A DNA stretch of 46,023 nucleotides, taken from the IMG/VR virus record IMGVR_UViG_3300049782_000037, positions 1 through 46,023 of that record; one strand, given 5' to 3'. Source of the DNA: a virus (Duplodnaviria; Caudoviricetes). Position numbers and translations under genes: made by a program. Of this stretch, positions 3,412 through 27,171 are shown piece after piece; the first letter of the stretch is position 1; each line of letters starts with the position of its first letter. The notes under the pieces were generated by a model that was given only the letters and a program-made list of their open reading frames with translations, did no database searches and had not been told where the DNA came from.

Positions 3412-3722
3412 GCCGCCGGCCTGGTGTCGGTGGTGAGCCACGGGGCGAGTGCGTCGAGTACGGCGGTGATGCGTCCCTCGGTGCGGTCGGCGCCGCACTT
3501 GCAGGGCGTGGTGCGGCTGCACTTCGGGCACGGCACCGGGCGGCGCAGGGCGTGCTCGACGACGCGGCGCTGCACGAGCGGCGCCGCGGCCGGGCTGGCG
3601 GTGGTGTGCCCGTTGAGTTCCTGCGCCGCCGAGTTGATGAGTTCCCGTGCCGCCTCGGCGTCGATGTGGCGGCGTACGAGGGTGAGCAGCGCTTCGACGG
3701 CGGTCATCGGTTCGGCGGTCAT
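3408..3722 (-). CDS. Hypothetical protein with CxxC/CxC
   Basis: MTAEPMTAVEALL...CPKC...CKC; coupled to the methyltransferase stop. Confidence 0.65.
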   Translation of the reverse strand: MTAEPMTAVEALLTLVRRHIDAEAARELINSAAQELNGHTTASPAAAPLVQRRVVEHALRRPVPCPKCSRTTPCKCGADRTEGRITAVLDALAPWLTTDTRPAA

Positions 3723-4732
3723 GATGCGTCGCTCTCGAAGAAGAAGGCGCCCTGCGCGAACCGCCCGCGGGCGAGATCGTGATACGCCGAGTTCAGGTCG
3801 ATGCCGATATACCGGCGGTCGAGCTGCCGGGCCGCGGCACCCGTCGTGCCTGATCCGGAGAACGGGTCGAGGACAGTCCCGCCGGGCTTGCAGCCGGCCT
3901 TGATGCAGCGCAGCGGAATGTCGATGGGGAACACGGCGAAGTGCGCGGCCGGGTATGGGCGGGTCGGGATCGACCACACGTCGCCGGGGTTCCGGCCCTT
4001 GGGGTTGTAACCCGCGCCGGTAACCAAGCCGCTGTTGCCGTTGTCTGTGGGGCGGTGGCGGGTGCGGAACTTGTGGTCGCTGTCTGCGTAGTCGTTGGTT
4101 CCTCGCACGGCTGCGCGTTGCCGTCCACCGTTGCCGATCGTGTGCGGCTCGCGGATCGGGTCTAGGTCGAAGTGGTAGCGCTGCGACTTGCTGAACAGGA
4201 ACAGGTGCTCGTGCCGCGTGCTCAGGCGGTCCTTGACCGGCTCGGGCATCGCGTTCGGCTTCGCCCAGATGATTTCGTTGCGGAGGATCCATCCGTCGTC
4301 CTGCAGCGCGAACGCCACTCGCCACGGAATGCCGAGCAGTTGCTTGGCGGCCAGTCCGCCGCCATTCTTGCCGCCACTTCCGGCAGGCGTCGTGCGGTGA
4401 TTGTTGCGCCCTTTCAGTCCGCTCGTTTTGGACTCGCTGCCCTTGGGGCTGCACACGTAGCTGTCGCCGAGGTTGAGCCACAGCGTTCCGTCGCCGGCGA
4501 GCACGCGCCGCGCCTCGGCGAACAGCGCACGCATCGTTTCGACGTACTCGACCGGCGACGCTTCGAGCCCGTACTGCCCGGCAGTGCCGTAGTCGCGGAG
4601 TCCGTAGTAGGGCGGGCTGGTGACGATGCAGTCGACGGAGGCGTCCGGCAGGGTGCGCAGGGTTTCGAGGGCGTCGCCGAGCAACAGCGACACGGTCTCA
4701 TCGGAGTAGTACAGCTCGGGTGGCGTGCTCAT
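3719..4732 (-). CDS. Orphan DNA amino-methyltransferase (N4-C/N6-A, beta class)
   Basis: TSPPYY catalytic motif precedes DPFSGSGTT SAM-binding motif; IIWAKPNAMPE, HFAVFP. Confidence 0.92.
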   Translation of the reverse strand: MSTPPELYYSDETVSLLLGDALETLRTLPDASVDCIVTSPPYYGLRDYGTAGQYGLEASPVEYVETMRALFAEARRVLAGDGTLWLNLGDSYVCSPKGSESKTSGLKGRNNHRTTPAGSGGKNGGGLAAKQLLGIPWRVAFALQDDGWILRNEIIWAKPNAMPEPVKDRLSTRHEHLFLFSKSQRYHFDLDPIREPHTIGNGGRQRAAVRGTNDYADSDHKFRTRHRPTDNGNSGLVTGAGYNPKGRNPGDVWSIPTRPYPAAHFAVFPIDIPLRCIKAGCKPGGTVLDPFSGSGTTGAAARQLDRRYIGIDLNSAYHDLARGRFAQGAFFFESDAS

Positions 4733-6612: not shown

Positions 6613-7061
6613 CCGTACTGCTCGACCCGGCTGCCGCGGCGCTCCTTCGCCGCCCGCTCGCGTTCCTGGTGCGCCTCGAACTCGACCTCGCTCGGGTGCT
6701 CGGCGAGCAGCAGCTCGACCGCGGCGTCGATGTCGTGAGCGCCGGGCCCGATCTCGTCGAGGGTCCCGTCCATCTTCCGCTTGCGGTACATGGCGCGCAT
6801 GACCTCGCGAAGCTGCCGCATCTGGTCGCCGTCGACGGCGACCTCGGCGAGCTTGACCCGCAGCTTCACCTGCGGGTCTTTGTCCTCGCCCGCGGCGTGC
6901 CCGGTGTATGTCGTCGACGCGAGTTCGACGACCGCGACGATCCGGGCGCCGGGTGCCTCGAACAGCCCGCGGCGCAGGATCGCGGGTATCGCCTGCTGCA
7001 GCATCGCTGCGGCCGAGTCGAGCTTGACCTCGACCTCTGCGTCGTCGTCCAACTTCGGCAT
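6609..7061 (-). CDS. Hypothetical protein
   Basis: ATG with SD AAGGAAG; good codon bias. Confidence 0.75.
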   Translation of the reverse strand: MPKLDDDAEVEVKLDSAAAMLQQAIPAILRRGLFEAPGARIVAVVELASTTYTGHAAGEDKDPQVKLRVKLAEVAVDGDQMRQLREVMRAMYRKRKMDGTLDEIGPGAHDIDAAVELLLAEHPSEVEFEAHQERERAAKERRGSRVEQYG

Positions 7062-7065
7062 GGGA

Positions 7066-7338
7066 TCACTTCCTTCGCTTGCTCATGGAGTGCTGCAGGG
7101 CGGCGTACTGGCGGGCGGCCGCCTCCCGTATCTCGGGAATCGGGCAGTCGTCACGGCGGTGCCGGCCGTACCGGATCACGAGCGCCTCGACTTCGGCGTA
7201 TCCGACGGCGTCCTCGGCGTGCCCGCAGGGGCACATGAAGTCGCCGGCGGCGAGCGTCTTCGCCTTGGGGTGGTCGAGGCGGACCCGCAGCCCGTAGCCG
7301 GGATGCGGGTTGCCGATCGTCGGCCCGAGCCCGGTCAT
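7066..7338 (-). CDS. Hypothetical protein (CPCGH...H...C)
   Basis: ATGA overlap with the methyltransferase stop. Confidence 0.65.
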   Translation of the reverse strand: MTGLGPTIGNPHPGYGLRVRLDHPKAKTLAAGDFMCPCGHAEDAVGYAEVEALVIRYGRHRRDDCPIPEIREAAARQYAALQHSMSKRRK

Positions 7339-8576
7339 GCCACGCGCGCCGTGTCCTGGCGGGCGTACTCGACCAGGTGCCGCACGAGAGGCACCTCGGG
7401 GGCGACTCGGTCGAGCAGGTAGCGCACGGCGACCGAGCACTGCAGCGGAACGACCCCGTTCCCAAGGGCTTTGAGTCGCGCGTTTCGCAGTGCCGTCTCG
7501 GTCATTCCGGGGGCGGGCGGCACTGAGCAGACGTGACCGGCGGGCACGCCCATGTGCCACTCGGAGAACTCGGGCGCTAGGCGTCCTTGATCGTCAGTTG
7601 GCCAGGGGTGGCGGCGTCCGAGGATCGTTTCCCACCGGCGGACTGCGGGCTCGTAATCGCCCCACTCAATGTCGGGTTGCCCCGCCCGTACGTCGGACTG
7701 GACCGATCCCCGTCCGCTGTGGTCGGCGTCGGCAGCAGCGGTAGCACGACTTGCGACAGCGGCGGCCGGAACCCTTCTGACGCTCGCGGGGTCGGCAGCA
7801 GCCGCACCGCGTCGAGCAGCGTCATCCCGTACCCCGTCCCGTACGGCGTCCCGTCCGGCCGGAAGTTCGCCGTCGCCGCCGGGGCGGTCGCCGCCGCCGT
7901 CGGCAGCAACTTGATCGCCGTCCGCAGGTCGAGACCACCGGCCCCGTGCTCCCCCGCCCCGTTCGTGTCCGAGGTCCGCGGGGTCGGCAGCAGCCGGCCA
8001 CGCGATGATGAACTCGCGGAACCGCTCATGGGGAGCGCCGACCTCCGAAGCGCGTACGCCCGCCCATTCCGCATCGAACCCGATGGTGGCCAGGTCTCCG
8101 AGTACGGCACCAAGTGCTCGCAGAACAGGTTTCCCGCCTGCGTAGTCCAGACAGCACGCGTCGGGTCCCACTCCGCTACGAGCCTGCGTCGAGAGGATGC
8201 CGCGGACATTCTCGATCACCACCAATCGGGGTTGTAGGGCGGCGATCCCTTCGAGCATGTAGTGCCACAAGCCCGAGCGGGTGCCGATCATGAGGCCGAG
8301 GCGCTGCCCGGCGGAAGACAGGTCGGTGCAGGGGAACCCGCCCGTGACGACGTCGACCGGCCCGTGCTCGTCGAGCACGCGCTGCCACTTCACGCGGGTG
8401 ATGTCGCCGAGGTTGGGCACCTCGGGCCAGTGGTGCGCGAGGATCCGCGCCGCGTACTGGTATCTGTCCTCGGGGTCGTACTGGCAGTGCCACGCGATCT
8501 CGCCGCCGAGCACGGCCTGCACGCCCATGTCGAGCCCGCCGTACCCGCTGAACAGGGATCCGATCCGGAGCGTCAT
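7335..8576 (-). CDS. DNA (cytosine-5)-methyltransferase
   Basis: Motifs I (SLFSGYGG), IV (GFPC), VI (ENV), VIII (PHERFR) and X (LGNGVV). Confidence 0.93.
   Translation of the reverse strand: MTLRIGSLFSGYGGLDMGVQAVLGGEIAWHCQYDPEDRYQYAARILAHHWPEVPNLGDITRVKWQRVLDEHGPVDVVTGGFPCTDLSSAGQRLGLMIGTRSGLWHYMLEGIAALQPRLVVIENVRGILSTQARSGVGPDACCLDYAGGKPVLRALGAVLGDLATIGFDAEWAGVRASEVGAPHERFREFIIAWPAAADPADLGHERGGGARGRWSRPADGDQVAADGGGDRPGGDGELPAGRDAVRDGVRDDAARRGAAAADPASVRRVPAAAVASRATAAADADHSGRGSVQSDVRAGQPDIEWGDYEPAVRRWETILGRRHPWPTDDQGRLAPEFSEWHMGVPAGHVCSVPPAPGMTETALRNARLKALGNGVVPLQCSVAVRYLLDRVAPEVPLVRHLVEYARQDTARVA
7577..8209 (-). CDS. Nested out-of-frame ORF with four LLPT(P) repeats; putative second (TRD-bearing) subunit of the C5-methyltransferase
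   Basis: 210 codons open; ATG inside the ENV codons with SD-like GGTGGTGATC; repeats LLPTPRTSD, LLPTAAAT, LLPTPRASEG, LLPTPTTADG; codons CTG CTG CCG ACC fit host bias better than the outer frame. Confidence 0.7.
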   Translation of the reverse strand: MSAASSRRRLVAEWDPTRAVWTTQAGNLFCEHLVPYSETWPPSGSMRNGRAYALRRSALPMSGSASSSSRGRLLPTPRTSDTNGAGEHGAGGLDLRTAIKLLPTAAATAPAATANFRPDGTPYGTGYGMTLLDAVRLLPTPRASEGFRPPLSQVVLPLLPTPTTADGDRSSPTYGRGNPTLSGAITSPQSAGGKRSSDAATPGQLTIKDA

Positions 8577-9178
8577 GCCGCGGCTCCCATCACGTACCGC
8601 TGCCGGTACGCGTCCGGCCACTTCCCTTTGCTCAACCGGTCCCGCTGCGCCTGCGGCATGTCGAACAGCGGCAGGCCGCACCAGTCATGGCCGGCGGCGC
8701 GCAGCCACCAGGCGTCGCACTGGTCGCCGCCCCTGTCGTCGACAAACTCGGCCCCGGCCGCGAGATAGGCGGCCGCCGCCATGGCGGATTTGTCGGCGCC
8801 GCCGTTGTCGCACGCGTAGCTCTTGAGCGTCGCCGGGACGATGTACGCGTACGGCACGTCGGCGTCGAGCAGTTCGGGCAGTACCGCGCCGTGCACCTTC
8901 GCCGTGATCCCGGCCGCCATGGCGTGCTTGGGCAGGTCTTCGATCACTACGAGGTGTGGCCGGTGGTCGGCGATGTCGTCGCGGATGCTGTCGCGGATGT
9001 GCAGCAGCCTGCGGTCGCCGTCCGCGGCTCGGGTCTTGATCCGGTAGGTCGTGCCGTCGGGCAGGCACACACCGGTCGACGTCAGCGACAGGTCGAGCCC
9101 GATCACGCGGAACCCGTCGGGGCCGGCGATCGGGGCGGCGGGCTCGTGAGGGGCGAGCAGTCCGGGGATCGTCGTCAC
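8573..9178 (-). CDS. RuvC-like Holliday junction resolvase
   Basis: VIGLDLSLTSTG, VVIED, K..A...G.ADK, DQCDA catalytic pattern. Confidence 0.88.
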   Translation of the reverse strand: MTTIPGLLAPHEPAAPIAGPDGFRVIGLDLSLTSTGVCLPDGTTYRIKTRAADGDRRLLHIRDSIRDDIADHRPHLVVIEDLPKHAMAAGITAKVHGAVLPELLDADVPYAYIVPATLKSYACDNGGADKSAMAAAAYLAAGAEFVDDRGGDQCDAWWLRAAGHDWCGLPLFDMPQAQRDRLSKGKWPDAYRQRYVMGAAA

Positions 9179-25656: not shown

Positions 25657-27171
25657 CTAGGACGGGTCGAGGATGCGCCACCCGACGACGGATGTGTCGG
25701 TTGACGAGGTCGACCGGATCACGAATGACGCGCCGGCGGTGCGCGTGTTGACGTACGGGGCGCCGACCGTGCCGCCCGGTGTTTGCGTCGTGAGCACGAT
25801 CACGCTGGTCGCCGTGACCGCCGTCGTGTTGACGGTGACGGTGCCCGCCGCGAGGGTGGCGGTTCCCATGCGGGCCCCGGTGCCGGTGGTCGGAACGACG
25901 GTCTTGCCGGCGACGACGAGGGAGCCGTCGCCCGCGTCGAGACGGTTGACCGTGCCGTTCAGGCTGTTGGGCTTGACGGCGGTCAGACCGATCGCGGTCA
26001 CGATGGTGCCGGCGTCGGTGCGCAGACACGCCGTCGCCGCGGCGACGGGCGCGATCTCGGTGACGCCGGCCAGTACGACGCCGGTCGCCGAGTTGGTGAC
26101 CCACACGGACGTGCCGTCGGACGCGTCGGAGACGAACCCCTGCACGGTGGCACCCTTGCCGCCGTACACGATGAGCCCGGTCGTGCACTGCTCGGCGCCG
26201 CATCCGGTGAGGGTGACGGCCGTGCAGCTGTCGAGCCGGATGCCGAAGGGCGACTGCTGCGTCGCGCAGGCGGTCAGGCTGGTGTACGACATGCCGTCGA
26301 GCAGGAAACCGCCGCTCACGTTGCCCTCGGCGGTGCAGCCGACGAGGGACGTCGACGTACCGCCCACGATGGTGTCCTGCGGGGCCTGCAGGTGGAATCC
26401 CACGCCGCCGCAGGTGCGCACCCGCACCCGGTGCAGGACGCTCCCGGCGAACTGGTGGCAGAACACGCCGTCGCCGCCGAACGACTGGATCAGCAGGTCC
26501 CGCAGGGTGATCCCGGCGGTCGCCGGCGCGCTGAACCGCGTGAACCGCACACCGCTGCCGAACCCGCGGCCGGGGCCGGACAGTTGCAGGCCCTGCAGGG
26601 TGACGCTGTGCACGTCGGTGCCGACGATGCAGTCGTTGTTCTGGTTCGTCGACTGCAGGATCGACACGCGGTCGCCCGCGCCGATCAGGTTGACGCCGCT
26701 TGCCCAGGTGAGTGCGGCCCCGAGCAGGTAGCGGCCGGCCGGGAGGTACAGCGTGCCGCCGCCCGCGCCGGATACGGCGTTGATCGCGGCCTGTATCGCG
26801 GCCGCGTCGTCGGTGACGCCGTCGCCCTGCGCGCCGTGCTCCGTCACGCTCACCCAGTCGAGGGGCGACTCGGGCGCCGAGCCGCCCCCGGCGCTGAGGT
26901 TGTGTGCCTCCATCCAGGCGCGGGCGCCCTCGTTTGCGGACGCCCACATGCCGGTCACGCCGTCGGGTCCGAGGAACCGCGGAATGAAACCGTGCTCCGT
27001 GGCGCGTACCGACGTCATGGCCGTGCCGCTCGTGTCCTGCAGGTCGGTGTACTGGTTGCCGCCGTCTGCGGCATCCCACAGCGTGATCACCGCTCCGGGG
27101 GTGACCGTCCACACGCCGTCGACGGCCGCAACCACGTAATCGGCGATGCCGCCGCCGAACTCGTGCCGCAT
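25657..27171 (-). CDS. Tailspike/receptor-binding protein with pectate-lyase-like beta-helix
   Basis: VTEHGAQGDGVTDDAAAIQAAI...GGGTLYLPAGRY entry motif followed by beta-helix repeats. Confidence 0.85.
   Translation of the reverse strand: MRHEFGGGIADYVVAAVDGVWTVTPGAVITLWDAADGGNQYTDLQDTSGTAMTSVRATEHGFIPRFLGPDGVTGMWASANEGARAWMEAHNLSAGGGSAPESPLDWVSVTEHGAQGDGVTDDAAAIQAAINAVSGAGGGTLYLPAGRYLLGAALTWASGVNLIGAGDRVSILQSTNQNNDCIVGTDVHSVTLQGLQLSGPGRGFGSGVRFTRFSAPATAGITLRDLLIQSFGGDGVFCHQFAGSVLHRVRVRTCGGVGFHLQAPQDTIVGGTSTSLVGCTAEGNVSGGFLLDGMSYTSLTACATQQSPFGIRLDSCTAVTLTGCGAEQCTTGLIVYGGKGATVQGFVSDASDGTSVWVTNSATGVVLAGVTEIAPVAAATACLRTDAGTIVTAIGLTAVKPNSLNGTVNRLDAGDGSLVVAGKTVVPTTGTGARMGTATLAAGTVTVNTTAVTATSVIVLTTQTPGGTVGAPYVNTRTAGASFVIRSTSSTDTSVVGWRILDPS

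Follow-up and report, generated by a model that had tools for sequence, protein, structure and literature searches.

A C5-methyltransferase gene of a tailed soil phage carries a second reading frame nested within the first. Both frames are conserved among relatives, and they likely specify an enzyme of two chains; of these, the nested one is predicted to associate with the outer (alpha) chain and likely supplies the recognition modules. The gene was found in the window, i.e. the whole stretch of DNA that was analyzed (46,023 nt), to which all coordinates refer unless a relative is named. The source record is a 46-kb virus with a GC content of 71% (0.71). Comparisons with published enzymes draw on excerpts of the cited papers.

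The outer chain

The outer ORF (7335..8576, (-) strand) encodes the alpha chain of 413 aa, in which C5-methyltransferase motifs I–VIII are followed by a filler and by motifs IX and X. A Pfam match to PF00145 covers aa 4–192 (E 2e-24), the phmmer matches include M.HhaI and M.HaeIII, and the matching PHROG families, phrog_363 and phrog_116, are labelled DNA methyltransferase. Motifs I, IV (PC), VI (ENV), VIII (RxR), IX, and X are present in this order. Motif IV, with the catalytic Pro-Cys, lies at aa 79–87 (8316..8342, (-)), and P82 and C83 are invariant in all 41 alignment rows. Motif VI (8205..8216, (-)) contains the ATG of the nested frame. Motifs I–VIII and X had been recognized in the original prediction, but motif IX had been missed; PHROG matches and a motif search place it in the outer frame at aa 332–348 (7533..7583, (-)), ahead of motif X at aa 367–377 (7446..7478, (-)). 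SAM-dependent formation of 5mC by the enzyme is predicted from the sequence.

The filler extends over about aa 196–300. Its AAAD repeats, which had been described correctly, are the other-frame shadow of LLPT codons. A specificity region between motifs VIII and IX is absent from the outer chain: the filler has a pN/pS of 2.5, and in the AF2 model aa 204–295 have pLDDT values <50, whereas the remainder is confident. The outer chain thus possesses all catalytic and cofactor motifs, but the place of the recognition region of other C5 enzymes is taken by a disordered filler. The outer chains of Raleigh (L007) and Darolandstone (L008) have about 55 extra residues between motifs IV and VI.

The nested chain

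The nested ORF in the +1 frame (7577..8209, (-)) encodes a beta chain of 210 aa, which comprises an N-terminal arm, four modules, and a tail; the coordinates and the start at an ATG in the ENV codons had been given exactly. This ATG lies within GAG AAT GTC (E-N-V, outer codons 122–124), behind GGTGGTGATC-GAGA, and the Shine-Dalgarno (SD)-like GGTGGTGATC (8214..8223, (-)) is situated 4 nt ahead of it. Among relatives, GTGGTGATC is found ahead of ENV in 24 of the 45 high-GC multi-module loci. The nested frame starts with an ATG in ENV in 59 of 162 loci and with other start codons in 93, while no start was found in 10; one clade has AGGAG ahead of an in-frame start codon in 32 of its 39 loci. The nested start thus seems to shift between clades yet to retain a putative ribosome site. 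Further in-frame starts are present at nested codons 33, 34, 46, and 61. An AAT-to-AAC change at the nested start is silent, and the further starts could mask the loss of the nested ATG; internal starts are described to have masked the effect of a start mutation in M.EcoHK31I (PMC2836561).

The arm (aa 14–52; 8054..8170, (-)) contains a WPxSGxMxNG motif and is overprinted on motif VII of the outer frame. At the other end, the C-terminal GQLT motif and the stop (7577..7603, (-)) are held by rare outer-frame codons: in 20 loci, the outer codons over the nested tail are CCA in 16, ACT in 15, and GAT in 16 cases, compared with 0.00, 0.05, and 0.06 upstream.

The nested chain has 251 protein relatives. 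The family phrog_1008, also labelled DNA methyltransferase, matches nested aa 9–153 (E 8e-23) as well as outer aa 279–394. No match for the nested protein was found in Pfam or PADLOC, a sequence search against the PDB gave 0 matches, and a search of the ESM Atlas returned unnamed clusters only, with a low recognition value.

The sliding-clamp-binding motif is given as QL(S/D)LF in the cited excerpt (PMC9690074). The only similar strings in the nested chain of the window are QAGNLF in the arm (8113–8146, (-)) and GQLTI in the tail (7580–7603, (-)). A relaxed clamp pattern is matched by 10 of 62 distinct arm strings, several of them as QLDLF. Relatives with clamp-motif-like strings are L060, L071, L083–L086, and L090, and a GQLT(I/L) C terminus is conserved in the streptomycete copies. 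Through such motifs, the enzyme might be linked to the replication clamp.

Selection on both frames

Searches with the outer protein or an N-terminal alignment retrieved 172 loci, of which three could not be parsed and five were duplicates; some of the remaining 164 are near-copies. A profile of the nested arm matches the +1 frame in 161 of these 164 loci. As the profile was built from the same frames, codon-level tests were added. When the window gene was recoded synonymously with the outer protein fixed, the +1 frame was open in 2550 of 5000 trials; the window alone therefore does not prove the nested frame, and the proof comes from the relatives.

The codon-level set consisted of 124 loci anchored on motif VII, including the window. 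Nested stops in homologs, which the original prediction had named as the sign of a spurious frame, are missing: over motifs VII–VIII there are 0 stops in 5,208 codons of the +1 frame, compared with 318 in 12,276 codons upstream. The +1 frame is open in all 124 loci, although synonymous recoding predicts 56.5, and the Gly codon of motif VII is GGG in 122 of 124 (baseline 0.15). Outer-frame codons are bent to serve the +1 frame. Sixty longer genome stretches, which partly represent the same loci, gave the same picture: 54 could be parsed, the +1 frame is open over the arm in all 54, and 45 have an ATG in ENV. Conservation of the nested frame extends down to a GC content of 0.43.

For modules of the same cluster in window-like loci (350 non-independent pairs), the pN/pS value is 0.30 in the nested frame versus 2.5 in the outer frame, and the differences concentrate at nested third positions (1490, 1051, and 3616 at the three positions). 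The nested values for the arm (0.97) and for the first 22 tail codons (1.39) show that constraint there is local and confined to few positions. The outer frame, in turn, is open across the nested modules in 67 of the 68 loci with motif IX in the outer frame, whereas the stop rate of AquI-like loci would predict 9.4. These patterns indicate that both frames are under selection.

The modules of the window copy and of its relatives

The repeated 12-mer had been located exactly, at 7728, 7791, 7899, and 7983; four matches compare with 0.06 expected, and 0 of 100 shuffles reach four. It had also been noted that the nested frame has the better codons over the modules, and the codon adaptation is indeed 0.67 for the nested and 0.34 for the outer frame. 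Four modules are present as predicted, forming the cluster string 2-8-9-15, but not all of them begin with LLPTP. Module 1 (28 aa, cluster 2; 7910..7993, (-)) is intact, with pN/pS values of 0.25 in the nested and 2.33 in the outer frame (10 pairs). Module 2 (36 aa, cluster 8; 7802..7909, (-)) begins with LLPTA and is missing the conserved Asp (pN/pS 0.75, nine pairs). In module 3 (21 aa, cluster 9; 7739..7801, (-)), two RAS repeats flank a deletion of 30 nt that preserves the frame; the 10 codons are kept by all nine relatives of its type, and the bases are identical in sequencing runs X6 and X7. Module 4 (27 aa, cluster 15; 7658..7738, (-)) is intact (pN/pS 0.39, six pairs) and at its end overlaps the lead-in to motif IX in the outer frame. 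Modules 2 and 3 of the window copy look altered.

The sequence of 7335–8576 is matched by identical contigs in run X6 (6824–7982 and 7960–9112) and run X7 (7649–7799), neither of them flagged as a potential source of the record, so that it does not represent an assembly slip. Contig joints near the module starts in run X6, with 80% likeness, were set aside because they may stem from other organisms.

The 447 modules form 40 clusters of at least three (three mis-cut), with 113 modules outside clusters, and their median length is 36 aa. The prediction that modules are shuffled while both frames stay open is supported by the relatives. Among 145 cluster pairs, 24 are found in both orders, the 41 window-like multi-module loci have 39 different strings, and no locus repeats a cluster. 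Indels were expected to be multiples of three without stops; accordingly, Raleigh and Darolandstone have four and six modules, of which the first three are common, and in each frame the difference between them amounts to 45 codons. The records of Raleigh, Darolandstone, and Tweety annotate only the outer ORF. Of the 26 clusters displayed, nine occur in both frames, and the outer chains of 22 mixed loci and the chain of the single-chain locus L158 have identical module clusters between motifs VIII and IX. The number and order of modules thus vary among relatives, and shuffling in whole codons is supported. No published description of the module family was found in the literature covered, which was chiefly open access.

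Layouts among relatives

Including the window, 75 of 165 loci have the window-like layout, 40 are AquI-like (IX and X nested), 22 have modules in both frames, eight are EcoHK31I-like (IX nested, X outer), one is a single chain (L158), and 19 are broken, cut off, or unclassified. Motifs I–VIII (143 rows) were used for a FastTree tree, which needs 15 layout changes versus a minimum of 4 and whose starred branches force four to five per large group; long branches leave some placements unsure, and the direction of change cannot be told. Within-gene recombination would yield the same pattern. The six nearest tree relatives of the window copy are all window-like.

Several individual loci deserve mention. 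L158 (2001–3224) encodes a single chain with four modules between VIII and IX and has no arm in the +1 frame; it is the simplest enzyme for probing module specificity. In L010 (phage Samy, 1543–2526), the +1 frame is open from 1543, and the second gene of the record begins at 1777 and omits the arm. In L049, L111, L131, and L159, neither chain has motifs IX and X in its frame, and the outer frame of L159 runs into the arm and loses motifs VII–VIII; these four are broken copies, assembly slips, or off states.

Comparison with known two-chain enzymes

M.EcoHK31I and M.AquI are the described two-chain C5 cases in the excerpts consulted (PMC2836561, PMC3404938). In M.EcoHK31I (E. coli, YGGCCR), as in the window, the small chain lies wholly within the large gene in another frame (PMC2836561). 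Its nested chain carries motif IX, its large chain carries a predicted TRD, and the N-terminal part of the small chain is needed for association (PMC2836561, PMC3404938), a likeness to what is proposed for the nested chain here. The analogy drawn originally therefore stands for a chain nested in another frame, but not for the distribution of parts: in the window, the outer chain contains IX as well as X, the modules form a string on the nested chain, and the neighbours tested include no recognizable restriction endonuclease. The eight EcoHK31I-like relatives do share the arrangement with IX nested and X outer. These likenesses refer to the described layout and not to the sequence; when M.EcoHK31I was sought in plasmids through an EcoHK31I-like relative, nine weak records were obtained, none of which could be identified as this enzyme.

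M.AquI (CYCGRG) is described as a two-polypeptide C5 enzyme split after motif VIII (PMC3404938). The 40 AquI-like relatives (e.g. Samy, Camperdownii, and Eesa) resemble it in that one chain comprises motifs I–VIII and the other the arm, the modules, IX, and X. In contrast, the outer chain of the window reads through to IX–X, and the second chain ends before IX. The window copy thus misses one defining feature each of M.EcoHK31I and M.AquI, but is predicted to work like them.

The enzymes SPR, H2, and SPbeta MtbP of Bacillus phages have tandem recognition domains between VIII and IX, according to the cited excerpt (PMC8936443). The window enzyme is likewise a phage-borne orphan with tandem units, which in L158 and the 22 mixed loci occupy the same place. 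The Bacillus phage enzymes are, however, single chains with proven multiple targets, whereas the units of the window are on a separate, overprinted chain. The families phrog_363, phrog_116, and phrog_1008 have only DNA methyltransferase labels, and the two-frame layout is unrecorded there. The ShiLan methylase, as excerpted (PMC11855218, PMC9957025), was rejected as a precedent; it belongs to a different methylase family, and its case is that of an HNH insert out of frame and not of this overlap.

Predicted association of the two chains

A complex of the alpha and beta chains was predicted with a score of 0.89, while the best of three controls reached 0.00. The mark used for complexes is reached by 116 of 157 solved pairs and by 2 of 215 mismatched pairs. 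The runs share at least 44% of the contacts, with a partner pLDDT of 50. In the predicted complex, nested aa 43–47 pair antiparallel with outer aa 168–172, and the two ends of module 2 are close to motifs IX–X.

A resemblance to monomeric C5 enzymes of solved structure may underlie the score, and alignments derived from the same nucleotides could feed false covariation into the prediction. The antiparallel register (constant sum 215) is unlike that expected from shared bases, yet it crosses that diagonal. The prediction therefore supports, but does not show, association of the chains. Together with the stop-free +1 frame and the open outer frame, it argues for the two-chain enzyme of the original prediction, and we regard two-chain function as very probable.

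Function of the modules and alternative explanations

The specificity region of C5 enzymes sits between motifs VIII and IX, as stated in the cited excerpt (PMC3404938). Since the same modules occupy this position in L158 and the mixed loci, and since the outer filler of the window cannot serve, the modules are, as judged from position, probably target-recognition units. In the proposed mechanism, ribosomes would start the nested chain at the internal SD site, the nested arm would pair with the motif VII strand, and one module at a time would dock beside motif IX and read the target. Recombination at shared LLPT codons would add, drop, and reorder modules in whole codons, and the orphan enzyme would protect the phage DNA from several host restriction systems. 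A wider reading, which we put forward tentatively, is that the nested chain serves as a free-standing specificity subunit of many cassettes, with one target per module of 25–45 residues, some 40 or more kinds among actinobacterial phages, and layouts that interconvert by a single frameshift, which would place the modules and motifs IX–X on either the catalytic or the nested chain.

In the AF2 model of L158, the modules have pLDDT values <50, and Foldseek with this model returned matches to the catalytic core only, with M.HhaI first and no module match. The best match of a module profile to SPbeta MtbP was the catalytic PC stretch; the SPTLTT stretch, which we take to be the TRD core, came third. 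Retention of 6-bp palindromes was compared with module clusters at 68 loci (13 of 81 were left out as non-streptomycete-like or module-less) in 403 tests. The best family-wise p was 0.048 (0.94 versus 0.85 observed/expected) without correction for kinship, and this was counted as no result.

The lacking association with palindromes at these loci is compatible with two chains that have a single or little specificity, either because one module works or because modules are spacers, protein-binding sites, or relics; so are the altered modules 2 and 3 and the shortness of the modules (median 36 aa), which remain unfolded in AF2. We consider this explanation unlikely, as many distinct clusters are under purifying selection at any string position, and as the occurrence of each cluster only once per locus fits distinct functions.

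A decaying or inactive window copy, in which a real family layout arose by frameshift from an AquI-like gene and the nested chain is dead, is improbable. The window-like layout is present in 74 other loci, including the six nearest tree relatives, the catalytic residues are intact, and start, ribosome site, and tail codons are retained. The two altered modules would fit decay, as would the 19 broken, cut off, or unclassified loci and the near absence of several 6-bp palindromes from the phage, so that site avoidance is also used; modules 1 and 4, however, have the low pN/pS values given above.

Two separate chains, and not a frameshift product, would have to be made, because the overlap includes catalytic motifs: the arm and motifs VII–VIII are conserved on the same bases, and one chain cannot hold both. 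One polypeptide made through programmed frameshifting from the outer to the nested frame and back would be a sensible product, given that modules and IX–X share one frame in 40 AquI-like, 22 mixed, and one single-chain loci. Such frameshifting is nevertheless very improbable, since 67 of 68 loci have no stop in the outer frame over the modules and the nested frame retains its own starts, tail, and stop. That the nested ORF stays open by chance in DNA of high GC content (0.71, with half of the recodings open), or is an unrelated overprinted gene without Pfam, PADLOC, or PDB match, can practically be dismissed in view of conservation down to GC 0.43, codon-level selection, the presence of these modules within the methyltransferase chain in relatives, and the coverage of nested arm, modules, and IX–X by phrog_1008.

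Phage and locus

The phage is of the Streptomyces type and temperate, with genes for a serine integrase, terminase, portal, capsid, tape measure, and lysin (Pfam). The nearest tree relatives of the window copy are viral contigs and Streptomyces loci, from which we infer that the host is probably a streptomycete. The methyltransferase gene is located in the early region, flanked by a RuvC-like gene and a small gene of unknown function, and the outer ORF is joined to both neighbouring genes by ATGA overlaps. No cognate restriction endonuclease was detected among the neighbours tested (17 proteins with PADLOC, 41 with Pfam, 13 with PHROGs), several of which have no assigned function.

A second orphan methyltransferase of the N6/N4 type is encoded at 3719–4729 (-) (PF01555, E 6e-53) and is a confounder in any methylome of the phage. 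Several palindromes are strongly and selectively avoided in the window (1–46023), i.e. CCCGGG (0 versus 29.8 expected), CTCGAG (1 versus 40.7), CACGTG (0 versus 14.6), and GAGCTC (0 versus 11.5), while CTGCAG, GACGTC, and GGATCC are kept in the window and avoided by Raleigh and Darolandstone. A tail-spike-like protein with pectate-lyase beta-helix and K1-lyase C-terminal domains (Pfam) is encoded at 25657–27171 (-).

Implications

Nested two-chain C5-methyltransferases have been proven for one enzyme, whereas here the layout is the rule throughout a large family of phages (161 of 164 loci). Within one Streptomyces sample, a close match of the outer chain was found in 21 of 401 genomes. If the outer ORF were cloned or modelled after codon recoding, the partner chain would be lost. 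If the modules are recognition units, they amount to a naturally occurring collection of very short cassettes for specificity. If the multi-cassette reading is true, a plug-in code for cytosine-methylation targets would be hidden in thousands of single-protein annotations, and EcoHK31I-like, AquI-like, mixed, and single-chain enzymes would be states of one interconverting gene.
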